Shown: in pieces, positions 4,655-24,181 of the stretch
Layout: each line of letters begins with the position of its first letter
Numbering within the stretch: position 1 is the first letter of the stretch
Assembly (NCBI GenBank): GCA_964493715.1
Contig: CAZBPC010000049.1
Span: 1-24,181, forward strand
DNA length: 24,181 nt
Direction: 5' to 3'
DNA from: an uncultured archaeon
GTDB taxonomy: Archaea > Asgardarchaeota > Lokiarchaeia > Sigyniarchaeales > SOKP01
Translations under genes and position numbers: made by a program
Notes under the pieces: generated by a model
Seen by the model: the letters and a program-made list of their open reading frames with translations, nothing else
Told to the model about the DNA's origin: nothing
The model's database searches: none

Positions 4655-7105
4655 TTATATTTGGTTCAATTTTTTTGTATCTCTTCTATTCAACCACTTT
4701 AATGTAAATGTTTTAATGAAATTATTACCTATAAACGCTCCAAGGGCAAACACCCAAATGAAACCAGTTAAACCCCAACCAAGAGGTGCCATGAAAATTC
4801 CAGTAGCAGCAAAAATAGTCGCTACAATTTGAGTGCTTTCACAAGTGTAAAAAAGGCTTTTTGATGGAAAAGGGCGCTTCCAAAAATTGTCTTCCTCTGT
4901 TCGTGTAAGATATATTGTCATATGACCAGCTACGGTTAATTTCAAGAAAATAAATGTCTGAAGTACTGCAGGATCGAGAACAAATACAAATCTACCAATT
5001 AAAAATATAGTAAAACTAAATGCTACCCCAGCAATCCCTAAAATTGAAGATAAAATTAATATTCTTTGCATTCTCCATCTTACTGGTTTTTGGTCAATTC
5101 TTGTGTTATCAAAAGCAATTGTCATTATTGGTAAATCGTTTAAAAGTGCTAAAATCACAATCATAACTGCAGTAATTGGATAAAAGTTAAGGATTGTGAT
5201 AGAAAGGACTAGGAAGATTAGAATCCGAACGGTTTCAGCAATTCTATAAACTGCATAACTTTTCATTCTTTCAAAGATTTTTCGACTTTCCTGTGTAGCT
5301 TTTATAATCACTGATATCCCCGGATCAGTCAACACAATATCGGCTGCAGATTTTGCAGCATCTGTGGCATTAGAAACTGCGATCCCGATGTCTGCTTTTT
5401 TCAAGGCAGGAGCATCGTTAACTCCATCCCCTGTCATCCCAACCACATGATCTTTACTTTGCAGTAATTCTACAATGTGATATTTATGTTCGGGATACAC
5501 TTCAGCAAAACCGTCAGCATTCTCAACTAAGCGAATTGTATCAGAATCATGTTTTCCTACAATTTCAGTGGATAGGACTATATTCGTCCCAATTCCAAGA
5601 TTACCCGCTATTTGTTTTGCTATTTCAATATGATCACCAGTTACCATTTTCACATTTATACCTAACGATTTTGCTGTCTTTATTGTTTCAAATGAATCTT
5701 CTCTCGGAGGATCATGAAGAGCTACGATCCCTACATACTTCCAGGTAATTTGATTGTCGGATATTGCTACTCCAAGAGCTCTGAATCCTTTAGATGCAAA
5801 AATCTTTCCTTGACTGTTTACTTTATCTTCCATGGTGGGATCTGCTTTGGTTAAATTTAAAATCACTTGGAGAGCTCCTTTAGATACTTGAAGCGATTTA
5901 TTATCTTTATCTTCTATGCTTGCTTCTGTCCGCTTTTTTATTGGATCGAAAGGCTTGAATGACTTTAAATTATATTTGGAATATAGAGAATACATTTTCG
6001 AATCTTCTTTCATTTTAGAAAAAAAAGCATCATCAATTGGGTCCTTGCTCTCCTCTTTTGATGCCAGTCCACCATAAAGAATTACATCTTGTTCAGAATA
6101 ATTACTAAAAGATATAACCTTAGCTATTGATATTTGATTCTTAGTGAGAGTTCCAGTTTTATCACTACATAGAACATCCATACTGGCTGCTTCTTCAATA
6201 GAAAGCAATCTACTCACAATCGCTTTTTTTTTAGCCAATTCCATTGCACCTACTGCCATAGAAACCATCATAACAGCAGGTAACGCGACTGGAATTGCAG
6301 CAACAACTAAAACTAGAGCAAACTGTAAGATATTAAAAAAACCTTCCGCTCTTATTAACCCGATAATAAAAACAAGTGATACTAGTAAAATTGCTAAAAT
6401 AATAAGATAATTACCGATCTTAACGATAGCTTGCTGAAAGTGGCTTCTTGTTTTTGCTTCTTCAACTAATTTTGTCGTCTTTCCGAAGAATGTATTTAAT
6501 CCAGTCCCCACTACAACACCATTCATCTCACCCTGGCGAATTATTGCTCCTTCGAATGCCATATCTGAAACCTTTTTATCAACTGGTAATGATTCCCCCG
6601 TTAAAACAGATTCATCCATTGTAAGGTACTCTCCATCTATCAATTTTACATCTGCAGGGATAATATCACCTAATCTAAGATGCACGATGTCTCCCGGAAC
6701 TAAATTTTTCGCTTCAAATTCTATCCAATTTCCATCTCGCAGTACTTTACACCTTAATGCGAGTTTTTCTTTTAATAATTCTATTGCATTATCCGCTTTG
6801 TTTTCTTCCCAAAAACGTACAACGCTATTAATTAAAAGCATTGCTATAATAATGGCAAAATCATCCCATTCCTCTATAACAAGAGATAGAATAGCTGCAA
6901 TTTCAATCATCCAAGGAATCGGACCCCAAAAGTTGCGTAGAAATTTTAATACAGGTGATTTTTTTTTCTCCGGAATCTCATTAGTCCCATATTTTTGAAG
7001 TCGATTTGTTGCCTCTTGAGAAGTAAGACCTTTTTCACTGGTAGATAATTTTTGATAGATTTCATTAATAGCTAATTCTTTCGCTTCTTTAATATTAATC
7101 TCCAT
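4655..7105 (-). CDS. Plasma-membrane proton-efflux P-type ATPase (P3A, PMA1/AHA-like), copy 1
   Basis: FWGPIPWMIE, LTGES, IPVALP, CSDKTGTLT (phospho-Asp), DPPRED, VTGD, MTGDGVNDAPALKKAD, TM5 YRIAET (Arg), TM6 LLNDLPIMTIAFD (proton-acceptor Asp). ATG at 7105 preferred over GTG at 7120. Confidence 0.95.
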   Translation of the reverse strand: MEINIKEAKELAINEIYQKLSTSEKGLTSQEATNRLQKYGTNEIPEKKKSPVLKFLRNFWGPIPWMIEIAAILSLVIEEWDDFAIIIAMLLINSVVRFWEENKADNAIELLKEKLALRCKVLRDGNWIEFEAKNLVPGDIVHLRLGDIIPADVKLIDGEYLTMDESVLTGESLPVDKKVSDMAFEGAIIRQGEMNGVVVGTGLNTFFGKTTKLVEEAKTRSHFQQAIVKIGNYLIILAILLVSLVFIIGLIRAEGFFNILQFALVLVVAAIPVALPAVMMVSMAVGAMELAKKKAIVSRLLSIEEAASMDVLCSDKTGTLTKNQISIAKVISFSNYSEQDVILYGGLASKEESKDPIDDAFFSKMKEDSKMYSLYSKYNLKSFKPFDPIKKRTEASIEDKDNKSLQVSKGALQVILNLTKADPTMEDKVNSQGKIFASKGFRALGVAISDNQITWKYVGIVALHDPPREDSFETIKTAKSLGINVKMVTGDHIEIAKQIAGNLGIGTNIVLSTEIVGKHDSDTIRLVENADGFAEVYPEHKYHIVELLQSKDHVVGMTGDGVNDAPALKKADIGIAVSNATDAAKSAADIVLTDPGISVIIKATQESRKIFERMKSYAVYRIAETVRILIFLVLSITILNFYPITAVMIVILALLNDLPIMTIAFDNTRIDQKPVRWRMQRILILSSILGIAGVAFSFTIFLIGRFVFVLDPAVLQTFIFLKLTVAGHMTIYLTRTEEDNFWKRPFPSKSLFYTCESTQIVATIFAATGIFMAPLGWGLTGFIWVFALGAFIGNNFIKTFTLKWLNRRDTKKLNQI

Positions 7106-7246
7106 AAATATGAAAGACACTATTAAGTATTTAAACCTTTTTTCATCGAATTATAGAGAGATATAATTCAAATATACTTTTTTGTCGATAATTTGATTGT
7201 GCTAATAGATTAATAAATAAAGTAAAAAAAAATAAATAATTAAAAT

Positions 7247-9691
7247 TTAGAACATCCTGCCTCTACGTCGTAGAAACTTATAGAAATAATACTTTAGATA
7301 ATCTGTAATAATAAACCATATAAATGCATATATTAACACAAATACCGCTAATCCCCATCCCATTGGGGGTAGTATTATTCCATATACAGTAAAAATCACA
7401 GCAAGAATTTGGGTTGTTGTTGTTGCAATGAATAATTCTTTTGCTGGTTTTTTTTCCCAGAAATGCCCTTTAGTTCGTGCTACGTACACGGTTAATGATG
7501 CTGCCACAGATAATTTCAGAAATATAAAGGATTGAAGTATTACAACGCTAAGATTAAATACAACAAGCCCTATATAAAATAATAGGAAAGAGGCTAATAC
7601 CCCAAAAACACCAAGAACAGTGCTAATAAGTAAGATTACATTCATATTCCACCGTTCTGGTTTTTTAGAATACCCTACATTATCTACAGCAATAGTCATA
7701 ATCGGAGCGTCGTTTAAAAGGGCTAATAATACAATCATTAGTGCTGTTACCGGATAAAAGTTGAAAATTACAATAGAAAGCGTGATAAATATTATTACAC
7801 GAATGGTTTCTGAAATTCTATATATAGAATAATTAAGCATTCGATGAAAAATTTTACGACTCTGAATTGTTCCATCAATTATAACTGAAAGTCCTGGTTT
7901 TGTAAAAGTTATATCTGCTGCTGATTTTGCAGCATCTGTTGCGTTCGAAACAGCAATGCCAACATCTGCTTTTTTTAAGGCAGGTGCATCATTAACCCCA
8001 TCTCCCGTCATTCCAACAATATGATTTTTCATTTGTAATAATTCAACGATCCGGTATTTGTGTTCTGGAAAAACCTGTGCAAAACCATCGGCGTTTTCAA
8101 CAATTGTTTCAGCTTCGTCGTCTGCTCTATCCAGAAAAGCTGAAACTGGGTAAATATTCATACCTAGTCCAAGAGTTTTAGCCGTTTCTTTAGCAATTGC
8201 AACATGATCTCCAGTAACCATTTTAACACCTATTCCCATAGATTCAGCCATTTTTATTGTTTCAGCAGAATCCTCTCGGGGTGGATCGAATAATCCTATC
8301 AATCCAATAAAGTAGAAATCATTACTTCCATTTACTGTTTTTCCAACTCCTAATGCGCGATAACCCTTTGAAGCATATTCATCAACAAAACTATTTACTT
8401 CCTTTTCTATAGCATCTTTATTTACTGAAAGCGATAAAATGACTTGAGGTGCTCCTTTTATCACTTTAAAAGATTTCCCAGTGCTATCTTGTATTACCGC
8501 TTCAGTACGTTTTATAACGGGATCAAATGGTGTGAATTTTTCTACAGTATATCCATCAATTTTCTTTTTAAGTTCTTCAAAATCCTCACCCTTAATTATG
8601 ATTGCATTATCAATAGGATCTTGATCTTCTTCTCTCGATGCCAAAATTCCATTTAATATAACACTTTCTTCATTACTATCTCCAAAATATTTGATCGTTG
8701 CTACTGAAATTTCATTTTTAGTAAGTGTACCTGTCTTATCTGAACACAATATATCAACACCAGCTAATTCTTCAATGGCTACTAATTTGCTAACAATTGC
8801 ATTCTTTTTCGCCATATTTATCGCTCCGATTGCCATAGTTACTGATAGAACTGCGGGTAATGCGACCGGAATAGAAGCAATGATTAAAACTAAGATAAAC
8901 TGAAGTGTATTCAGAAAGGTTGCTCCACGAATAGCTGACACTATAATAATTATCAAGACCATACAGAAAGCAAAAATAATTAAATAATTTCCAATTTTTA
9001 CAACAGCCTTCTGAAAGTGGCTACCAGTTTTTGCTTTCTCAACAAGTTCAGTAGTTTTTCCAAAATAAGTCTTCATACCAGTACTAGTGATTATTCCATC
9101 CATTTCTCCTTGCTTAACGATAGACCCAGAATAACCTATATCATTTACATGCTTTTCAACAGGTAATGATTCACCAGTTAACGCAGATTCATCAATCTGT
9201 AAATAATCTCCTTTTATTAATTTTAAATCGCCAGGAATAATGTCCCCTAATCGTATACGGATTACATCTCCAGGCACAAGCTCTCTTGCAGCTACACTTT
9301 TCCATTTTTTGTCGCGCAAAACGCGCGCTTTAACAGCTAGTTTGTTTTTTAAAAGCTCGATTGCGTTATCTGCTTTATTCTCTTCCCAGAATCGTACGAC
9401 TCCATTCACCATCAATAAAATAAAGATAATCCAAAAATCCGTCCAATGTCCAATAATTGCTGATATTACAATAGCAACTTCGATCATCCATGGTATAGGA
9501 CCCCAAAAATTTCTTAGAAATTTTATTATTGGGTTAACTTTTTGTTCAATAATTTCATTGTAACCATAAATCTCTAATCTTTTATTGACTTCAACTTGCC
9601 TCAAACCTTCATTATTAGTTGAAAGCTGGGAATATATTTCTTCAACCTTCATTGATTTTGCTTGTTCGGTTGTTAAAATTTTATTACTCAT
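7247..9691 (-). CDS. Plasma-membrane proton-efflux P-type ATPase (P3A, PMA1/AHA-like), copy 2
   Basis: Same motif set: FWGPIPWMIE, LTGES, IPVALP, CSDKTGTLT, GDGVNDAPALKKAD, YRISET, LLNDAPIMTIAVD. SD-like GAGTGAT just upstream of the ATG. Confidence 0.95.
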   Translation of the reverse strand: MSNKILTTEQAKSMKVEEIYSQLSTNNEGLRQVEVNKRLEIYGYNEIIEQKVNPIIKFLRNFWGPIPWMIEVAIVISAIIGHWTDFWIIFILLMVNGVVRFWEENKADNAIELLKNKLAVKARVLRDKKWKSVAARELVPGDVIRIRLGDIIPGDLKLIKGDYLQIDESALTGESLPVEKHVNDIGYSGSIVKQGEMDGIITSTGMKTYFGKTTELVEKAKTGSHFQKAVVKIGNYLIIFAFCMVLIIIIVSAIRGATFLNTLQFILVLIIASIPVALPAVLSVTMAIGAINMAKKNAIVSKLVAIEELAGVDILCSDKTGTLTKNEISVATIKYFGDSNEESVILNGILASREEDQDPIDNAIIIKGEDFEELKKKIDGYTVEKFTPFDPVIKRTEAVIQDSTGKSFKVIKGAPQVILSLSVNKDAIEKEVNSFVDEYASKGYRALGVGKTVNGSNDFYFIGLIGLFDPPREDSAETIKMAESMGIGVKMVTGDHVAIAKETAKTLGLGMNIYPVSAFLDRADDEAETIVENADGFAQVFPEHKYRIVELLQMKNHIVGMTGDGVNDAPALKKADVGIAVSNATDAAKSAADITFTKPGLSVIIDGTIQSRKIFHRMLNYSIYRISETIRVIIFITLSIVIFNFYPVTALMIVLLALLNDAPIMTIAVDNVGYSKKPERWNMNVILLISTVLGVFGVLASFLLFYIGLVVFNLSVVILQSFIFLKLSVAASLTVYVARTKGHFWEKKPAKELFIATTTTQILAVIFTVYGIILPPMGWGLAVFVLIYAFIWFIITDYLKYYFYKFLRRRGRMF

Positions 9692-14480: not shown

Positions 14481-15584
14481 ATGACTGATGACGTTGTTTA
14501 TATTGACGCAAAAACTCTTGAGAACTTCATGAAAGACGTATTTAAAAGCCTTGGTGTACCTCAAGAAGACGCTGCCATAATTGCAAACGTGTTAATTACA
14601 TCAGATTTAAGGGGAATTGATTCACACGGTATTCAGCGCTGTAAAATGTACTATGACCGGATTAAAGAAGGGATTTATGAAGTGAACACTAAAATTGATG
14701 TTATCAATGATGGTCCAACTACTGCATTATGGGACGGAAATTGCGGAATGGGACATGTAATCGCCCATAAAGCAATGAAAGCAGCAATTGAAAAAGCCAA
14801 GAAATATGGACTAGGTTCAGTGGCAGTAAGGAATTCCACTCATTTTGGAATCGCAGGATACTATTCTTTAATGGCAATAAAAGAAGGAATGATTGGTTTA
14901 GCTGTTACAAACGCAAGACCATCAATGCCTCCAACCTTTGGGGTGGAACCAATGTTGGGAACCAATCCTTTAACAATCGGAACTCCTACTGATGAAAATT
15001 TTCCCTTTCTAATTGATTGTGCAACAACTATTATTCAAAGAGGAAAGGTAGAAGTGTATGATCGATTAAAAAAACCTTTACCAGATGGTGTAGTAATTAC
15101 TGAAGAAGGTAAAACAGAGACGAATGCTACAAAAGTCTTAGAGGATTTAGGAAAGGGTAAAGCTGCGTTATTACCACTAGGTGGAAAAGGAGAGGAAACT
15201 TCTGGATATAAGGGATATGGATATGCTACCTTGGTAGAACTTTTATCTGCTGCATTAACTGATGGAATTTATCTAAAAAACACTATAGGAATTACTGAAA
15301 AAGGTCAAAAACGCCTTAAAGTAGGGCACTTTTTCTTAGCAATTAATATAAAAAGCTTCTTGCCGCTCTCCAATTTTGAAAAAACTGCAGGCGAAATATT
15401 GAGAGGTTTAAGAAATTCTAAAAAAGAACCTGGAATGGATAAGATATATACTGCAGGAGAAAAAGAATATTTTGCTGAAATTAAGAGGAGTAAATCTGGA
15501 ATTCCTTTAAATAAAAGTTTGCAAGAAGATATTAAAATAATGCAGAAGGAACTTCATTTAAACAACTACAAATTTAAATTTTAA
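14481..15584 (+). CDS. Ldh_2 family (malate/L-lactate/sulfolactate/ureidoglycolate-type) NAD(P)-dependent oxidoreductase, copy 1
   Basis: SDLRGIDSHG, RNSTHFG, GTNP, YKGYG, GHFFLAI, IYTAGEKE motifs. Confidence 0.92.
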   Translation: MTDDVVYIDAKTLENFMKDVFKSLGVPQEDAAIIANVLITSDLRGIDSHGIQRCKMYYDRIKEGIYEVNTKIDVINDGPTTALWDGNCGMGHVIAHKAMKAAIEKAKKYGLGSVAVRNSTHFGIAGYYSLMAIKEGMIGLAVTNARPSMPPTFGVEPMLGTNPLTIGTPTDENFPFLIDCATTIIQRGKVEVYDRLKKPLPDGVVITEEGKTETNATKVLEDLGKGKAALLPLGGKGEETSGYKGYGYATLVELLSAALTDGIYLKNTIGITEKGQKRLKVGHFFLAINIKSFLPLSNFEKTAGEILRGLRNSKKEPGMDKIYTAGEKEYFAEIKRSKSGIPLNKSLQEDIKIMQKELHLNNYKFKF

Positions 15585-15765
15585 AAAATCTTTTAATTTC
15601 TTTTTCAATAATTACATATTTCTTTTACTAATTTTAAAAATTTATTAATAAAATCTCTCAGAATTAATAAAATTAGGATTAATCACGAACTTTCAACTTA
15701 TATTTAATATGATTTTAATTAAATAGAAACATTGCTAAGCAATTATATCACAACTTTTTTATGGA

Positions 15766-16914
15766 ATGATAATGACTGAAAAAACTATATCAAAACCAAT
15801 TAATAATTCTCAAGAAGATGAGATATATATCAACGCGTCAATTCTTAGAAATTTTATGGAAGATGTATTTATAAAACTAAAAGTTCCTAAATCTGATGCT
15901 AAAATAATTGCCAACGGTATTATCCAAGCAGATTTAAGGGGGATTGATTCTCATGGTATTCAAAGATGCAAGATGTATTTTGATCGAATCAAACAAGGTA
16001 TATACAATCCTGTGACGAATATTGAAGTTGTGAGTGATAATGGCGCAACAGCTGTACTAGATGGAAATTGTGGAATGGGTCACGTGATTGGGTACCATTC
16101 GATGAAACTCGCTATTAAAAAAGCAAAATATTTTGGGGTTGGAGCCGTAGCAGTGAGAAATTCTACTCATTATGGATTTGCTGGTATGTATTCCCTCATG
16201 GCAATTGAGGAAGGAATGATTGGTTTTACAACCACTAATGCAAGACCTGCAGTACCACCTACGTTTGGAGTTGAGCCCATGTTGGGAACTAATCCTTTAA
16301 CATATGGTGCTCCAACTGATGAAGAGTTCCCTTTTCTTATAGATTGTGCAACATCCATAATTCAGAGAGGAAAAGTGGAAGTATATAATCGTATTCATAA
16401 ATCTTTACCTACTGGAGTTATCATTACTGAAGATGGAAACACTGAAACTAACCCAGAAGATATCCTTAACGACTTATGTGATAGATCCGCTGCATTATTG
16501 CCCTTAGGTGGGAAAGGGGAGTCGACCTCAGGATATAAAGGTTATGGTTATGCGACTTTTGCCGAGATTTTATCATCTGCATTACAAGATGGAGTTTATT
16601 TAAAAGACACAGCGGGAATTGTTGAAAATGATCAAAAAAGGTTAAAAGTTGGGCATTTCTTTTTAGCAATTGATGTGGATCACTTTAGACCTTTAGAGAA
16701 GTTTAAGGAAACTACTGGAAATATAATGCGGGAGCTGAGGAATTCTAAAAAAGTACCAGGGGTTAAAAAAATTTATACTGCTGGAGAAAAAGAGTACTTA
16801 AATGAAAGGATTAATAAAATAAGGGGAATTCCACTAAATAAAAGCCTGCAAAAAGAGATCAAAATCATGCAAAATGAACTAGGGTTGAAACAGAAATATA
16901 AATTCCCTTTTTAA
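15766..16914 (+). CDS. Ldh_2 family NAD(P)-dependent oxidoreductase, copy 2
   Basis: ADLRGIDSHG, RNSTHYG, GTNP, YKGYG, GHFFLAI, IYTAGEKE. Collinear paralog of copy 1; the start may be ATG 15772. Confidence 0.92.
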   Translation: MIMTEKTISKPINNSQEDEIYINASILRNFMEDVFIKLKVPKSDAKIIANGIIQADLRGIDSHGIQRCKMYFDRIKQGIYNPVTNIEVVSDNGATAVLDGNCGMGHVIGYHSMKLAIKKAKYFGVGAVAVRNSTHYGFAGMYSLMAIEEGMIGFTTTNARPAVPPTFGVEPMLGTNPLTYGAPTDEEFPFLIDCATSIIQRGKVEVYNRIHKSLPTGVIITEDGNTETNPEDILNDLCDRSAALLPLGGKGESTSGYKGYGYATFAEILSSALQDGVYLKDTAGIVENDQKRLKVGHFFLAIDVDHFRPLEKFKETTGNIMRELRNSKKVPGVKKIYTAGEKEYLNERINKIRGIPLNKSLQKEIKIMQNELGLKQKYKFPF

Positions 16915-18447: not shown

Positions 18448-19680
18448 TTACAAATTTCTTGGTATCTTCATTTCAATATCCGATATTGGATACGAAGCAC
18501 ATGGATGGAAATAATTAAACTTTTTATCTGCTGATCGTCGCCAATCTGAGATTGGATTTACATATACTTCTCCTGATATGAGAAGAGATCGACAAAATCC
18601 ACATTCTCCAGAGCGACATTTTGATGGTGGGGCTAAATTTGCCCTTTCTAATGCAACCAAAACAGATTCTGTAGACATAGCGGGTATCTCTTTAGATAGC
18701 CCTCCTATATGAATTTTAAGTTTGAAAGTCTTTTCTGCAACTTCTTTAGGAAAGTCAGGATGTTTTAAAATATCCTTAATTTCTCCAAAAGCTTCTCTGC
18801 GAATTCTCTTTATTGGTAAATTAAACTTGTTGAGTTCTTTTTCTACGAAATCGTACATGACTTGTGGTCCGCATATGAAAAATGTGGTTGAGTTTACATC
18901 ACAATACTTCTCTATAATTTCTTTAGTAATGAATCCTTTCTCACATCCTTCCAAAGAAACCTCCTCACAACTAAGAACATGGATAATTTTTATTTTAGCT
19001 GGATTATTTTTCTCCATTTCTTTAAATTCATCATAGAAGATTATATCATCCTCTTCAGAACTTCCATATAATAATGTTAAACGTGCATCGATTTGACCTT
19101 CATCTATTGCTTTTGCAATCGATCTAAAGGGGGTAATTCCTGAACCTCCAGCAATTCCAACAATATTTTTTAAATCCCTTAATCTCTCAAAAAAGAAGAA
19201 TCCTTCCGGACCTGAACTTTCAATCTTAGTTCCCACTTTCCAATTATCCCAAAGATAATGGGTTATGAAACCATTTTCTTCTTTTTTAATCGAAATTTCG
19301 TAAAAGCCTTTTGCGACATCTGTCGGTGAGGAAGCAATTGAATATGGTCTAGTAATTCTGACACCATTAACATCAACTTTTAAGCTGAGATACTGTCCCG
19401 GTCTAAAATAAGATAATTCTTTAGTTGTTGATTCAGGGTCAGGGACTACTTTGAAGGTTTTAGTAGATTTAGTTTCCTCTTTGATATCATCAATTATTAT
19501 AAATTGCTTTTCGGGATGTAATTTTCTCGCGAGATCATTTATTGGATCCTTTGTAATTGGCTTGCTCGATGCACGTTCTATCCGTTTCATTCTATTGGGT
19601 ACAAGCTTAGTAAAAGCAAATAAGTCCTTTGTATTGCTTTTAACAGTTACTTCTAATTTTTCATCATTCTTTTTACTCAT
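18448..19680 (-). CDS. FAD/NAD(P)H-binding ferredoxin reductase-like protein with C-terminal [2Fe-2S] domain (Hcr/PaaE/KshB-type architecture)
   Basis: FRPGQY, RPYSIASSP (FAD), IAGGSGITPF (NAD), FICGPQVM, C-terminal CRSGECGFC...HPC. ATGA 4-bp overlap with the upstream gene. Confidence 0.92.
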   Translation of the reverse strand: MSKKNDEKLEVTVKSNTKDLFAFTKLVPNRMKRIERASSKPITKDPINDLARKLHPEKQFIIIDDIKEETKSTKTFKVVPDPESTTKELSYFRPGQYLSLKVDVNGVRITRPYSIASSPTDVAKGFYEISIKKEENGFITHYLWDNWKVGTKIESSGPEGFFFFERLRDLKNIVGIAGGSGITPFRSIAKAIDEGQIDARLTLLYGSSEEDDIIFYDEFKEMEKNNPAKIKIIHVLSCEEVSLEGCEKGFITKEIIEKYCDVNSTTFFICGPQVMYDFVEKELNKFNLPIKRIRREAFGEIKDILKHPDFPKEVAEKTFKLKIHIGGLSKEIPAMSTESVLVALERANLAPPSKCRSGECGFCRSLLISGEVYVNPISDWRRSADKKFNYFHPCASYPISDIEMKIPRNL

Positions 19681-21245
19681 GCTTTTCCACCCTCCTCTAA
19701 TATTTTTCCTAAAATTAGTTGCGCCGAAATAACTCCATCATTCATCGCGCTACTATATCCATGAGCTCGTCTGTTAAATCCTCCAGCAAATTCAAGCCCT
19801 TTAATATATACGTCTTTACCCATGCTCATTAATCGTGGTACTAAGGAATCCCAAGATTCAGGTTCATAACCATAAAAAATACCCTTATAATGCCTTGTAT
19901 ATCTAGCAAAAGTAGCAGGAGTCGCGATTTCAATTTCTTCAATGTGATTTCTAATAGAACTTCCTGTAGCTTTTTCGAAATAAATGAGTAGATCTTCTGC
20001 AATTTTGGTCTTTAAATCATAATAATCTTCTGGTTTAACCTCTTCCCAAGCCTCAGCTCTATAAAGCGTCGTTATATCTAACATGCAAGTTCCTGGAGGT
20101 GAGCAATCGGGAACCGCATTATTAAGAACTACGCATGCTAAGCCTTTAGGGGCTTGAAGCGTAGTCCACGAGTCATACACATCCTCAGTATCCATATTAT
20201 TCATGATAAAATAACCATATTCAGTCAAACCTAACTCTTTTGCCGTGGCATCTAATCCTACATAGACAACAAAGCCAGTTAATCCATGAATACGTGCGTT
20301 TACATCTTTATATGCAATTTCTGGAACCTCTGATTTTGGATAGATTAGTTTATTATATGTTAATATCGGAGATGCATTACTGATTACATAATTTGTCTTG
20401 AATTTATCCCCGTTTGTAGTTTCTACTCCGATAACCATCCCATTCTCAACAATTATCTTATCTACTCTAGTATTATATTCAATTCTTCCTCCAAATTCTC
20501 TAATTTTTGCATCAAACGCAGTTGTAAAACCATGTGATCTATTTGTAGGGATCCATCCCCCTAATTCAGCGTATTGAAGTACCATTGCTGCAAAAAGAGT
20601 AAAATTAATTCTGCTTTCTGGAAGTCCTAAATATGCCCAATAACCATTAAGAATTTTCTGAGCTTGTTTAGGAATGCCCAATGCATCCTCAACCTCTTGG
20701 ACGGAATATGCTGCCGTTTTAAGAAAATTCGAATATTCTTTCATTAATACTCCTTGATCTGGTTTACCTTTGGTACTTCCAATATATGAAAACGCAGCGC
20801 TAATCTCTTGTGCAACATCAAAGAAATTTCTGACCGATTCCTTACTCCCAGGCACTTCTTTTTCTAAAGCTTCGATAAAATTATCAACTCCAAATGGCAT
20901 GGTGACATCCATTTTTTCGTCAGGATCAGTTAATATTAATCTATAAGCTTCCGGAACCTGAACAAATTCAGTATCTAATTGAAGTTTATCTTCAAACATA
21001 GTTCGAATGCTGCCCTTATTGGTTTTGGGTCCATAACTAGCAAGTTCATGTAAAGATGTCTCAAATTCGAATCGGCCTCTTACAAAACTTGTTGCTACAC
21101 CCCCGGGTAAATTGTGTTGCTCTATCATTATAACCTTAATACCTTTTTGAGCTAAAAATGCTGTTGCGGCCAATCCACCATTCCCTGCTCCAATAACTAC
21201 AACATCAAATGATTCTTCAATATTTTGTTCCTTCTTATTACTCAT
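19677..21245 (-). CDS. Phytoene desaturase / retinol saturase-like (COG1233) FAD-dependent oxidoreductase
   Basis: FDVVVIGAGNGGLA...EQHNLPGG.ATSFVRGRFEFE (Rossmann fold plus family motif), VISNASP, EIATPATFARYT...GIFYG, KGLEFAG. Confidence 0.88.
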   Translation of the reverse strand: MSNKKEQNIEESFDVVVIGAGNGGLAATAFLAQKGIKVIMIEQHNLPGGVATSFVRGRFEFETSLHELASYGPKTNKGSIRTMFEDKLQLDTEFVQVPEAYRLILTDPDEKMDVTMPFGVDNFIEALEKEVPGSKESVRNFFDVAQEISAAFSYIGSTKGKPDQGVLMKEYSNFLKTAAYSVQEVEDALGIPKQAQKILNGYWAYLGLPESRINFTLFAAMVLQYAELGGWIPTNRSHGFTTAFDAKIREFGGRIEYNTRVDKIIVENGMVIGVETTNGDKFKTNYVISNASPILTYNKLIYPKSEVPEIAYKDVNARIHGLTGFVVYVGLDATAKELGLTEYGYFIMNNMDTEDVYDSWTTLQAPKGLACVVLNNAVPDCSPPGTCMLDITTLYRAEAWEEVKPEDYYDLKTKIAEDLLIYFEKATGSSIRNHIEEIEIATPATFARYTRHYKGIFYGYEPESWDSLVPRLMSMGKDVYIKGLEFAGGFNRRAHGYSSAMNDGVISAQLILGKILEEGGKA

Positions 21246-21299
21246 AATCTCACAATTTTTTTTTTAATTATAATTTCATAATTCTTTATTTATTTTGAA

Positions 21300-21319
21300 T
21301 TTGATAACTTTTTATCAAA
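21300..21319. promoter_or_regulatory. Perfect 8-4-8 inverted repeat in the divergent promoter region (candidate operator)
   Basis: TTTGATAA-CTTT-TTATCAAA within the 154-bp spacer between the COG1233 gene and the GRE gene. Confidence 0.55.
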
Positions 21320-21399
21320 ATCTACCTCAAAAATATTTTAACAAATTTTAATAACTACAAAATCAATCATTAAATAAAATAATTTTTAGGGAATTTACC

Positions 21400-24181
21400 A
21401 TGCAAGTATTAGATGTAGAAAAAGAACTTGAAAATTTTAAAGGTCAGCTAAATTTACTGGCTATGATCTTCGATACCCGCAGAAAAATGCGTAGAGAGAT
21501 ATATAATGAAAAAACAGGATTCATTTTTAATGCAAAATATCAATTCACGACAAAAGATGATGCTTTTAATGTTTACGTAATTTTTAAAGATGGAAAGATG
21601 ACTGTCGCTGATGGAAAAATTGAGAATCCAAATATTACAATCTATTATAAAGATAAGCAGACTTTGGCTAACCTATATAGCAAGAGTGCTGAAGAATCGC
21701 TTGATTATCTTTTAACAAATGAAATGGGATATATTGGTAACATGAGTTATCTTACTAAATTCTCTTATCTCACATCGCTCGTGATGGGGGCTAAAATCAA
21801 GGATTATAAGGGTCCTGAAAATCGCTTGCTTTACCCAATTGAGGATATTGATAATAGAAAACTCAAAAATGAAGGTTTAAGCTATAAAGTTGATAATGTT
21901 AAAGTATTAGAGGATCCCTATTTATCTAAATATTCTATAAACGATTTTCCTAGGCTAAAATATTTAAAAAATAGGAGATTTGCCTTGAAACCGGCAATTT
22001 GTGTGGAAAGGGCGAAGTTAGTTACAGAATATCATATGGAAAATGGTTTTGAAGTAGATAAATCCGGAAATCCTTTTGATCCAGAATTAAGACAAGCTGG
22101 AGCGGTGAATTATATAATGGCTAATAAAGCGCCAATAATTCACGATGAGCATCTTATTGCTGGCTCCACTACTTCAAAAGAAGTTGGCATACCAATGTAT
22201 CCTGAACTCATAGCAACAGCAATATGGCCCGAATTAAAAACAATAGGCGAACGAGAACTCAATCCGAATGATATTTCAGATAAAGATGCTGATATTTTGA
22301 GTCTTGAAGTTTTTCCTTACTGGATGGAACGAAATGTGAGGGAATTTTGCAGAACAAAAAATAATAATCCAAAATCCCAAGCTTTAGAAGAAGGATGGGT
22401 TTTCTATTTTATGATGAAAACTAACGCCATTAGCCATACCGTTCCTGGATTTCCAATGGTGATCAATGAAGGCTTGGAAAGTGTAAAAAATAAAGCTAAA
22501 AAATTAGAACTGGAAACTGAAGAAGCAGAGAAAAAGAATTTTTATAAAGCAATTCAAATCGCAATTGAAGGGGTTTTAATTTATTCAACACACTTGAGTG
22601 AGGAAGCTCTAAAAATTGCTGACAGTTTGGACCCTAATAACCCAGATCAAGCAAAAAGAATATCAGAATTAAAAGAAATTTCAAAGATATGCGCTAAAGT
22701 GCCCGCAAAGCCTGCAGAAACCTTACAAGAGGCTATTCAATCAATCTGGACTAGTTTTGTATGCCTTCATTGTGAAAATGCTAATTCTGCATTGTCTATT
22801 GGTCGACTTGATCAGATGCTTCAGCCCTTTTTCTTAAAAGATGTTGAAAAAGCACATGATGAAGCAGAGAAACAAAAAATCATAAAACGTGCTATTGAGC
22901 TGGTGGGGTCCTTTTTTCTAAGAATAAATGACCACGATCCATTAATGCCAAACGTAGGATGGAAGTTATTTGGTGGTAGCTCTTCAGATGACACCGTAAC
23001 TGTTGGAGGTGTGGATAGAGAAGGGAATGATGCTGTTAATGACATGTCTTTTATCATTTTAAAAGCAAATGAAATGCTAGGTTTTCAAGATCCAAACATG
23101 AATGCTAGATATTATTCTGGAATTAATTCTAAGGAATATTTACGGAGGCTTACTGAAGTAAATATTAATATGGGGGCATCTCCAAGTATCCATAATGACA
23201 AAACTATGATTGAAGCATTGGTCCATGAAGGCTTTTCATTGGAAGATGCTAGGGATTGGGGCGTTACGGGCTGTGTTGAGCCTACAATTGTGGGGAAACA
23301 TTATGGTCATACAAATTGCATGCTTTTGAATTTGGTTGCTCCTCTAGAAATGGCATTAAATAATGGAATTATTCCACTGACGGGGGATAAAATGGGTCTT
23401 GAAACTGGGGATGTTCGATTGGCTTTTCCCACTTTCAATGATTTCCTTGATGCTTATAAAGCACAACTTAAGTATTTAGCTGAACAATCAATTGAAATTA
23501 ATAATTTTCTTGGGAAAGCACACGAGGTTATCCATCCAACACCTCTCTTATCTGGTTTTTATCAAGGACCACTAGAAAAAGGTAAGGATCTTATAAAAGG
23601 AGGAGCAATTTATAACACCTCAGGGGTTGCTCTTGTGGCGCTTACTGATGTAGTTGATAGTTTATTAGTTATAAGAGATTTAGTGTATAATGGAAGGGAT
23701 TTCGATTTTGCTATGTTAATGGATGCTATTGAAAATGACTTTGAAGGCTATGAATCAATTTTAAATAAAATAGATCAAGTTCCTAAGTTTGGATCCGGTG
23801 AAGAATCTACGATCAAGTTAGCTCAAGATATTATCGATTTCTGTTATGGAATATACAATTCTGCTGATAATTATAGGGGTGGCAAATATCTAGTTGGATA
23901 CTGGTCGATTAGTTACCATACTGGATTTGGAATGCTCACTGGTGCTTTACCTTCGGGTAGAAAGAAAGGAAAGGCATTAACTCCAGGGTTAACACCTGCT
24001 CCAGGAACTACTGACATATTACTTCCCAGTATTCAGAGTGTTGCAGCTTTAGATTATTTAAAAATGGCTAATAATGCTTCATACAATGTAAAGTTAGTAC
24101 CCCATGCTGGAGACAGTCATGAACAGACATTAGATTTATTTACTAGTTATGTTCAGAGCTTTTTTGATTTGAATGGAATGC
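21400..24181 (+). CDS. Glycyl radical enzyme (PFL superfamily, GCVEP type) with N-terminal SCP2-like lipid-binding domain; 3' end runs off the window
   Basis: Not in ORF track. Open frame of at least 927 codons from ATG 21400. Core: RLKYLK..PAICVERAKLVTEY, LIAGS, AETLQEAIQSIW, SIGRLDQML, TVGGVDREGNDAVND, DPNMNAR, EDARDWGVTGCVEP (Cys625, nt 23272-23274), PKFG, GALPSGRKKG.ALTPG.TP. The Gly-radical loop should lie beyond the window edge. Confidence 0.93.
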   Translation, partial: MQVLDVEKELENFKGQLNLLAMIFDTRRKMRREIYNEKTGFIFNAKYQFTTKDDAFNVYVIFKDGKMTVADGKIENPNITIYYKDKQTLANLYSKSAEESLDYLLTNEMGYIGNMSYLTKFSYLTSLVMGAKIKDYKGPENRLLYPIEDIDNRKLKNEGLSYKVDNVKVLEDPYLSKYSINDFPRLKYLKNRRFALKPAICVERAKLVTEYHMENGFEVDKSGNPFDPELRQAGAVNYIMANKAPIIHDEHLIAGSTTSKEVGIPMYPELIATAIWPELKTIGERELNPNDISDKDADILSLEVFPYWMERNVREFCRTKNNNPKSQALEEGWVFYFMMKTNAISHTVPGFPMVINEGLESVKNKAKKLELETEEAEKKNFYKAIQIAIEGVLIYSTHLSEEALKIADSLDPNNPDQAKRISELKEISKICAKVPAKPAETLQEAIQSIWTSFVCLHCENANSALSIGRLDQMLQPFFLKDVEKAHDEAEKQKIIKRAIELVGSFFLRINDHDPLMPNVGWKLFGGSSSDDTVTVGGVDREGNDAVNDMSFIILKANEMLGFQDPNMNARYYSGINSKEYLRRLTEVNINMGASPSIHNDKTMIEALVHEGFSLEDARDWGVTGCVEPTIVGKHYGHTNCMLLNLVAPLEMALNNGIIPLTGDKMGLETGDVRLAFPTFNDFLDAYKAQLKYLAEQSIEINNFLGKAHEVIHPTPLLSGFYQGPLEKGKDLIKGGAIYNTSGVALVALTDVVDSLLVIRDLVYNGRDFDFAMLMDAIENDFEGYESILNKIDQVPKFGSGEESTIKLAQDIIDFCYGIYNSADNYRGGKYLVGYWSISYHTGFGMLTGALPSGRKKGKALTPGLTPAPGTTDILLPSIQSVAALDYLKMANNASYNVKLVPHAGDSHEQTLDLFTSYVQSFFDLNGM

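Follow-up and report, generated by a model that had tools for sequence, protein, structure and literature searches.

A stretch of 24,181 nucleotides from an uncultured Asgard archaeon of the Sigyniarchaeales (contig CAZBPC010000049.1, here C49; "the window" means the whole stretch, which is this entire contig) ends in a gene for a glycyl radical enzyme (GRE) that carries, ahead of its catalytic core, a domain with the predicted fold of the sterol carrier family SCP2. This fusion is an architecture known from no studied GRE, and the family that shares it is widespread. Within the superfamily the core most resembles the 1,2-eliminases, namely glycerol and propanediol dehydratase, A. fulgidus PFL2, CutC and HypD. 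On balance, and with restrained confidence, we favor the view that the protein is an uncharacterised glycyl radical 1,2-eliminase with an amphipathic substrate: the reaction would take place at the polar head, and the SCP2 domain would hold or deliver the tail. The genome counts 3.68 Mb at 31% G+C in 160 contigs, and because the window is the entire contig, the open reading frame (ORF) of 927 amino acids at 21400..24180 on the forward strand runs off its 3' end without a stop. The parts of the gene considered here are these:

21400..21789, forward strand: N-terminal SCP2-fold domain, residues 1-130, from the AlphaFold2 topology and the top matches of Foldseek and VIA
21790..21939, forward strand: linker, residues 131-180, from alignments and the predicted local distance difference test (pLDDT)
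21940..24180, forward strand: GRE catalytic core, residues 181-927 of about 983, leaving the contig, from the Pfam PFL-like match (524 bits), phmmer against the PDB and VIA Z
22435..22437, forward strand: His346, aligned to His164 of glycerol dehydratase (the proposed leaving-group acid), invariant in 53 of 53 sequences
23269..23283, forward strand: Cys loop GCVEP with Cys625, the putative radical carrier, and Glu627 of the CXE motif, invariant in 53 of 53 sequences and aligned to C433/E435 of glycerol dehydratase

The N-terminal domain reveals itself mainly at the level of structure. An AlphaFold2 model of residues 1-187, built with 52 homologues aligned, shows the order H H E E E E H H E H (H for helix, E for strand) across residues 6-128, with residues 132-161 disordered. 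A Foldseek search of the PDB turned up 29 matches at E <= 0.001; among the matches listed all are SCP2 proteins or domains: the SCP2 domain of UbiJ comes first (8.9e-6), in the company of AF1534, the C-terminal domains of alkylsulfatases, and insect and human SCP2. A structure search independent of Foldseek (VIA, 48,161 chains) put SCP2 structures at every one of ranks 1-10, with Z from 12.2 to 7.5 and 104-115 residues aligned at a root-mean-square deviation (rmsd) of 2.5-4.0, well clear of the remaining chains; ranks 11-20 include the C-terminal domains of Eis and GNAT proteins at Z 5-6. As modeled, then, the domain is a genuine SCP2 fold, which the original prediction had proposed on the pattern of residues alone. 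A search of the ESM Atlas with residues 1-135 gave leads only, at scores of 0.91-0.92, one of them a cluster in which 16% of the members carry SCP2. Beyond the domain, the linker varies in length over residues 131-162 and is conserved over residues 163-178, where D165, D172, P173 and L175 are invariant in 53/53 sequences; its pLDDT is below 50 in the model of the N-terminal part and 67-95 in the full-length model.

SCP2 proteins bind acyl-CoAs. The structures most like the domain, UbiJ (6h6n/o/p; target TM 0.67), AF1534 (3bn8) and human SCP2, align at Z 10.5-12.2 with 10-15% identity and are carrier or accessory proteins, not domains of radical enzymes. The alkylsulfatases SdsA1, Pisa1 and YjcS (2cfu, 2yhe, 4pdx) share the design of a catalytic domain fused to an SCP2-fold domain, which matches that of the GRE at Z 11.6 (4pdx) and Foldseek E 1.6e-4 to 5e-4. 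Unlike the Asgard protein, they are metallo-beta-lactamase hydrolases with SCP2 at the C terminus and perform no radical chemistry. In SdsA1 the SCP2 domain reportedly recruits the alkyl chain.

The catalytic core begins where the original prediction had placed it, at about residue 185. The Pfam PFL-like family (PF02901) covers residues 186-844 (E 6.8e-157, 524 bits), the start of the Gly_radical domain follows at residues 861-926, sequence alignments to all 36 matched solved GREs begin at query residue 179 or later (phmmer against the PDB), and in structural comparison no solved GRE aligned before model residue 150. Placement within the superfamily rests on hidden Markov model (HMM) and phmmer scores together with structural Z, which runs from 31 to 43 across all solved PFL-like GREs. 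A. fulgidus PFL2 (2f3o) is the best sequence match (389 bits, 4.9e-115, Z 43.4), followed by N-methyl-hydroxyproline dehydratase 8id1 (369.5 bits, Z 42.0), HypD, glycerol dehydratase and propanediol dehydratase (about 355 bits, Z 41.9-43.5) and CutC (about 346 bits, Z about 42.9), with MasD and BSS (207 and 166 bits, Z 36.7-34.2) and finally PFL (88 bits, Z 31.5) further away. By class, VIA Z falls from 43.5-41 among eliminases to 36.7-34.2 among X-succinate synthases and 31.5 with PFL. All nine GRE models that match in NCBIfam stay far under their curated cut-offs: CutC, the best, scores 369.8 against 1050, HypD 364.2 against 1100, PflD 319.3 against 1109 and PFL 80.6 against 994, and the PFL2-3 subfamily reaches 453 bits for a cut-off of 678. 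The protein is therefore no equivalog of any curated GRE, in a test that covered CutC, HypD, PflD, sulfopropanediol dehydratases, indoleacetate and 4-HPA decarboxylases and PFL, and its description as an uncharacterised family holds.

The glycerol dehydratase of C. butyricum (1r8w) and the propanediol dehydratases (5i2a, 9rco) have the same barrel, with Z of 43.5 and 43.3-43.4, respectively, over about 778 aligned residues at rmsd 2.0 and 28-31% identity. Like them, the Asgard protein retains Cys-x-Glu and the equivalent of His164 and is served by an activase with extra ferredoxin-type clusters; unlike them, it has a 180-residue N-terminal extension made of the SCP2 domain and linker, and its pocket residues are changed. 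PFL2, also archaeal, is 776 amino acids long and lacks an SCP2 domain, so that the alignment starts at query residue 197; the context of its Cys loop differs, and it has Asp at the position of the family's N639. The available parts of a 2026 review of GREs leave the function of PFL2 unsettled as well (PMC13450708).

Residue by residue, the alignment to 1r8w pairs C433 with C625, E435 with E627, H164 with H346, H281/S282 with S463/A464, Y339 with D530, D447 with N639 and Y640 with W835. His281/Ser282, Tyr339, Asp447 and Tyr640 are what we take to be substrate-pocket residues of glycerol dehydratase, and from the pocket set of glycerol and 1,2-propanediol dehydratase only His164 is kept, as H346. 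C625, E627, H346, G958, D530, H634, H637 and H840 are all invariant in the 53/53 aligned family members. In the sections available of PMC13450708, the C-O-cleaving GRE eliminases are described as keeping the CXE motif, and in glycerol dehydratase Glu435 deprotonates the C1 hydroxyl as His164 protonates the departing C2 hydroxyl. Judged by these alignments, the radical and acid-base machinery of the GREs appears retained and the specificity residues appear to be the family's own. The reading of the GCVEP loop as of the eliminase type, made at the outset, is supported.

The missing end of the gene lies on a second contig of the genome. When the last 1182 bases of the window were searched against the genome, the one other match was contig C82, whose first 30 bases are the window's last 30. 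The GRE reading frame is carried on by C82 (bases 3-200), which encodes an RVSGY glycine loop and a stop at C82:200; 35 bases separate this stop from an activase gene (C82:235-1134, 299 amino acids, with Radical_SAM and several matches to ferredoxin-type 4Fe-4S/Fer4 families). Both the RVxG motif and the radical-SAM activase had been expected downstream. In the related locus L033, on a single contig, the order of genes is Ldh2, CDF, PaaE, CrtI, GRE, activase, aldehyde:ferredoxin oxidoreductase (AOR), PaaE, CrtI, which matches C49 joined to C82 and so supports the join. The homologue P0001 (983 amino acids), identical to the window protein across 927/927 residues and carrying RVSGY, was taken as a full-length stand-in for the GRE of about 983 residues.

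How would a lipid-carrier fold and a radical barrel be arranged in one protein? The full-length model has a predicted template modeling score (pTM) of 0.91, pLDDT of 85-94 in the SCP2 part and of about 95 at the conserved end of the linker. Predicted as a complex of two chains, residues 1-135 and 181-983 reach an ipSAE of 0.89 in three runs, the best of three controls reaching 0.00; at least 77% of contacts agree between runs, and partner pLDDT is at least 82. In the calibration of the method, 58 of 80 solved complexes scored this high, as did 2 of 110 mismatched pairs; these counts are only rough because the alignment was self-made. The predicted interface involves residues 32-43, 97-107 and 112-130 on the SCP2 side and 213, 273-281, 301-318, 323, 331, 333, 517-523, 660-661 and 845-846 on the core side. 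Core residues 331, 333, 517-523 and 845-846 are only a few positions away from H346, D530 and W835, and since three stretches of interface flank these residues the SCP2 domain would sit near the surroundings of the pocket. Together, the predictions support an SCP2 domain that packs on the core by the loops that align to the glycerol dehydratase pocket.

These elements suggest a course of reaction, modeled on glycerol dehydratase. The activase would install the glycyl radical, Cys625 would take a hydrogen from the hydroxyl-bearing carbon, Glu627 would remove the proton from that hydroxyl, and His346 would protonate the neighboring leaving group (OH, OR or NR3), giving an aldehyde or ketone. The SCP2 domain would hold or deliver the hydrophobic tail while the polar head enters the polar pocket, and the AOR encoded next to the activase in close relatives could then oxidise an aldehyde product. 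The presence of AOR genes beside the GRE, in 17 of 74 loci, is circumstantial evidence for an elimination that yields a carbonyl. From the chemistries listed in the original prediction for a hydrophobic substrate, elimination of a C-O or similar bond beside a hydroxyl is the best fit, and there is little to support alkane C-H activation through the addition of fumarate. That prediction is supported in part, its hydrophobic substrate remaining a conjecture; the features on which it had staked itself are what the analysis found: an SCP2 fold, pocket residues other than those of glycerol and propanediol dehydratase, and a Gly loop with its activase.

Several results weigh against the proposed eliminase acting on an amphipathic substrate. 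The Pfam check of the domain, put forward at the outset, did match SCP2 (PF02036) in the N-terminal 187 amino acids, residues 44-122 falling on profile positions 20-97 of 101, but the score of 16.6 bits (E 0.0099) does not reach the gathering cut-off of 21.3 bits, so the match by sequence alone is marginal; among 41 related sequences, 10 matched SCP2 at E <= 0.01. A profile of 41 related small proteins, run against the PDB sequences, did not find a solved SCP2 (its lone match there was calnexin, at E 0.97). The fold itself is no proof of lipid binding, as it occurs where a lipid role is unknown, in the C-terminal domains of Eis and GNAT proteins. In the full-length model the Gly loop has pLDDT below 50, and the placement of the SCP2 domain near the pocket would follow from closeness in sequence to the aligned loops. 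Over the last 56 residues, the tail encoded on C82 and that of P0001 disagree at 4 positions, which suggests that C49 and C82 may stem from slightly different strains of the same population. The pocket positions that can be mapped, S527-D531, H634, H637, N639 and H840, are polar, which argues that the reacting group is not a plain hydrocarbon. Among neighboring genes, ORF clustering in two locus sets found none beyond the activase that is kept in most loci, and in more distant loci (149 of the 157 proteins listed) the commonest Pfam family among the 149 flanking proteins is enoyl-CoA hydratase, with 7 members.

A first alternative is that the enzyme acts on a small polar substrate, such as a diol or amino alcohol, and that the SCP2 fold is structural or regulatory, serving oligomerisation, channel gating, docking of the activase or association with the membrane. 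This is a serious possibility, if a rather unlikely one. It would account for the polar pocket, for the fact that the nearest structures all have small polar substrates, and for the tightness of the predicted docking, whose interface is conserved at W276, E278, L279, F305, P306 and W308 and at G113 and N114-Y123; the SCP2-like folds at VIA ranks 11-20 that lack a known lipid role fit it too. To our knowledge, characterised GRE eliminases do act on small polar molecules. Set against it are the SCP2 relatives of other Asgard genomes, which accompany acyl-CoA enzymes in a beta-oxidation operon and in a fusion with Oxidored_FMN and Pyr_redox_2, the recurrence of enoyl-CoA hydratase, SDR and TetR genes beside the GRE, and the five other GREs of the same genome, which do without an SCP2 domain.

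A second alternative keeps the lipid and changes its form: the substrate would be a thioester of CoA whose chain carries a hydroxyl or another functional group, bound as acyl-CoA by the SCP2 domain, and the radical elimination would feed beta-oxidation. We regard this as improbable. Enoyl-CoA hydratase genes stand beside the GRE in 7/74 loci, from archaea and Dehalococcoidia, and SDR genes in 5/74, and the Asgard SCP2 relatives are embedded in acyl-CoA operons; yet 7/74 is a minority, AOR, an enzyme of free aldehydes, is found more often as a neighbor (17/74), and no CoA-binding motif was identified in the core. We know of no characterised GRE that acts on a CoA ester.

Could the amphipathic substrate be named? 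The GRE may start an oxygen-free breakdown of glycerol ether lipids, of archaeol or alkylglycerol type; we infer this purely from the way the domains are combined, from the changed side of the pocket and from AOR and enoyl-CoA hydratase as neighbors, and hold it to be quite improbable as a specific claim. In such a pathway the SCP2 domain would hold the alkyl or isoprenoid chain while Cys625 would take hydrogen from the glycerol head, at its free hydroxymethyl carbon. The adjacent alkoxy or hydroxyl group would be expelled by Glu627 and His346, as water is by glycerol dehydratase, to give a 3-alkoxypropanal. AOR would convert this to the acid, and after activation with CoA a crotonase-type enzyme, for which the recurrent enoyl-CoA hydratase is a candidate, would free the remaining alcohol by beta-elimination. 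No result presented here favors ether lipids above other amphipathic substrates, be they alcohols, diols or amino alcohols.

A last alternative, that the protein is an alkyl- or benzylsuccinate synthase which activates hydrocarbons by fumarate addition with SCP2 delivering the alkane, is very improbable: SCP2 would suit an alkane, and a homologue (P0096) occurs in the alkane degrader Desulfatibacillum aliphaticivorans, but the solved X-succinate synthases are clearly more distant (207 and 166 against 345-389 bits; Z 34-37 against 41-43.5), CXE and the His164 equivalent are invariant, and the flanking gaps of 35 bases downstream and 155 bases upstream leave no room for small-subunit genes beside the GRE (no search was made for distant ones). 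In available portions of the literature, PflD-like GREs of Hermodarchaeota are called Ass/Bss (PMC8163825), and PFL2, the best sequence match, is suggested to be a methylalkylsuccinate synthase (PMC13450708).

The fusion family occurs in many Asgard lineages and in several groups of anaerobic bacteria. A word-indexed search with residues 1-185 found 105 proteins, mostly of 980-1000 amino acids, the one from D. aliphaticivorans among them; the source labels of close homologues name Loki-, Thor-, Hermod-, Odin- and Freyarchaeota and Promethearchaeota. An exhaustive phmmer search with the 187-residue part gave 136 cluster representatives at E <= 0.001, made up of fusion proteins or their fragments and many proteins of 120-230 amino acids. 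Within the phylum the domain was matched at E <= 0.001 in 90 of 398 genomes, a count that includes weak matches to unrelated small SCP2 genes. The fusion proteins there form two clades, with domain identities of 55-100% and 37-44%, and some genomes have both. A scan with one genome per species yielded 74 loci from Asgard lineages and from bacteria (Desulfobacterales, Thermodesulfobacteriota, Bacteriovoracaceae, Dehalococcoidia, Chloroflexia, Syntrophaceae, Leptospirales, Spirochaetes and Bradymonadales).

No precedent was found in the literature, in keeping with the statement in the original prediction that no characterised GRE is known to have a lipid-carrier domain. Full-text searches found no GRE with an SCP2 or sterol carrier domain, the co-mentions listed being unrelated as judged from titles and the beginnings of abstracts. 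In the portions available of the 2026 GRE review neither "sterol" nor "N-terminal domain" occurs; the PFL-like GREs characterised so far are said to come from bacteria without exception, and those of archaea to be a gap still to be filled (PMC13450708); the accessible part of the Hermodarchaeota paper uses "N-terminal" for the activase only (PMC8163825).

Other Asgard genomes encode SCP2 relatives as stand-alone proteins or C-terminal domains, and these exceed the Pfam cut-off, at 68.6, 48.3, 45.6 and 34.6 bits; since the N-terminal domain of the GRE matches them, they back its assignment indirectly by sequence as well. The highest score belongs to a stand-alone gene of 109 codons, which lies between an acyl-CoA dehydrogenase gene and two enoyl-CoA hydratase genes, in an operon (L120:3714-9681, forward strand) that also includes a pair resembling ADP-forming acyl-CoA synthetase and has an AOR gene close by. 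In Asgard proteins of 791-804 amino acids, an Oxidored_FMN domain of the old-yellow-enzyme type and Pyr_redox_2 are followed by a C-terminal SCP2 domain (34.6-48.3 bits). The genes for these proteins are at:

L118:2862-5237, forward strand: Oxidored_FMN/Pyr_redox_2/SCP2 fusion
L119:5673-8087, reverse strand: Oxidored_FMN/Pyr_redox_2/SCP2 fusion
L124:5231-7606, reverse strand: Oxidored_FMN/Pyr_redox_2/SCP2 fusion

They constitute a second fusion of an enzyme with SCP2 in the phylum, and in domain order they presumably resemble 2,4-dienoyl-CoA reductase.

The genome of the window encodes five further GREs, on contigs C43, C87, C7, C15 and C33, with 28-32% identity, stop-to-stop frames of 781-891 amino acids and no N-terminal extension. 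HMM searches found no SCP2-like gene beside any of them on these contigs and weak SCP2-like candidates in the genome on C124, C36 and C3 only. Six GREs are a large set for one archaeal genome.

Around the fusion gene, the activase is the steady partner, and AOR and genes of beta-oxidation type are recurrent but not universal. Neighbors were counted across the 74 loci by tblastn with representative proteins, at E <= 1e-6 and half-length coverage, and the counts are lower bounds because many contigs are short: GRE core in 67, activase in 46, CrtI-like in 19, PaaE-like in 18, AOR in 17, enoyl-CoA hydratase in 7, and SDR and TetR in 5 each. Where at least 1300 bases follow the GRE core, 44 of 54 loci have the activase. 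In a first set, made of 20 loci from related genomes and the window's two contigs, the CrtI/PaaE pair was found in 8 and AOR in 9, and the loci with either all belong to close relatives of the window's organism. One cluster beside the GRE in a single genus (cluster 12) proved to be alanyl-tRNA synthetase and hence unrelated. Two genes of the window directly upstream of the GRE belong to this setting:

19677..21245, reverse strand: divergent CrtI-like flavoprotein of the phytoene desaturase family, 522 amino acids, present in 19/74 related loci
18448..19680, reverse strand: PaaE-like FAD/NAD(P)H and 2Fe-2S reductase, 410 amino acids, in 18/74 related loci, overlapping the CrtI-like gene by 4 bases

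This pair stands beside the GRE in about a quarter of loci, and a link to the GRE is possible. On C82 the activase is followed by a Roadblock/LC7 protein, AOR and then a second PaaE-like/CrtI-like pair, so that paralogous pairs flank the GRE-activase-AOR unit (window 18448-21245 and C82:3859-6629, both on the reverse strand). The CrtI-like protein is far under every NCBIfam cut-off, and it is puzzling that an anaerobic archaeon should have an enzyme of the carotenoid desaturase family paired with its own ferredoxin reductase. The Roadblock/LC7-domain protein (187 amino acids, C82:1296-1859, forward strand), directly past the activase, has counterparts within a few kilobases of the locus in two relatives (L024:18281-18844, forward strand). 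Proteins with FAD_binding_4 (549 amino acids) and DUF1848 occur together near the locus in 5 of 22 locus sets (L025:33-2588, forward strand, and C82).

Further upstream, the window has tandem Ldh_2 family genes (malate/L-lactate dehydrogenase type 2; 14481-16914, forward strand) ahead of a CDF transporter gene, a block that is syntenic with the GRE locus in several relatives, and tandem genes for P-type (E1-E2) cation ATPases of 821 and 814 amino acids (4655-9691, reverse strand). No tRNA genes were found in the window, and a promoter and terminator scan of 21200-21450, of a kind unsuited to archaea, found nothing. Two metatranscriptome runs contain three contigs of 151-202 bases over 23685-24053 at 95% likeness or above, which are possibly DNA carry-over and were not counted as expression. 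Contigs from DNA runs extend beyond the end of the window.

A conserved clade of GREs with a built-in lipid-carrier fold points to anoxic radical chemistry on amphipathic or lipid substrates, which is undescribed for the superfamily. The clade also bears on claims of hydrocarbon degradation by Asgard "Ass/Bss" enzymes: if those homologues belong to this SCP2-GRE clade, they look likelier to be eliminases than fumarate-adding enzymes. And if glycerol ether lipids did turn out to be the substrate, the pathway begun by this enzyme would be a route for the anaerobic recycling of ether lipids in sediments.

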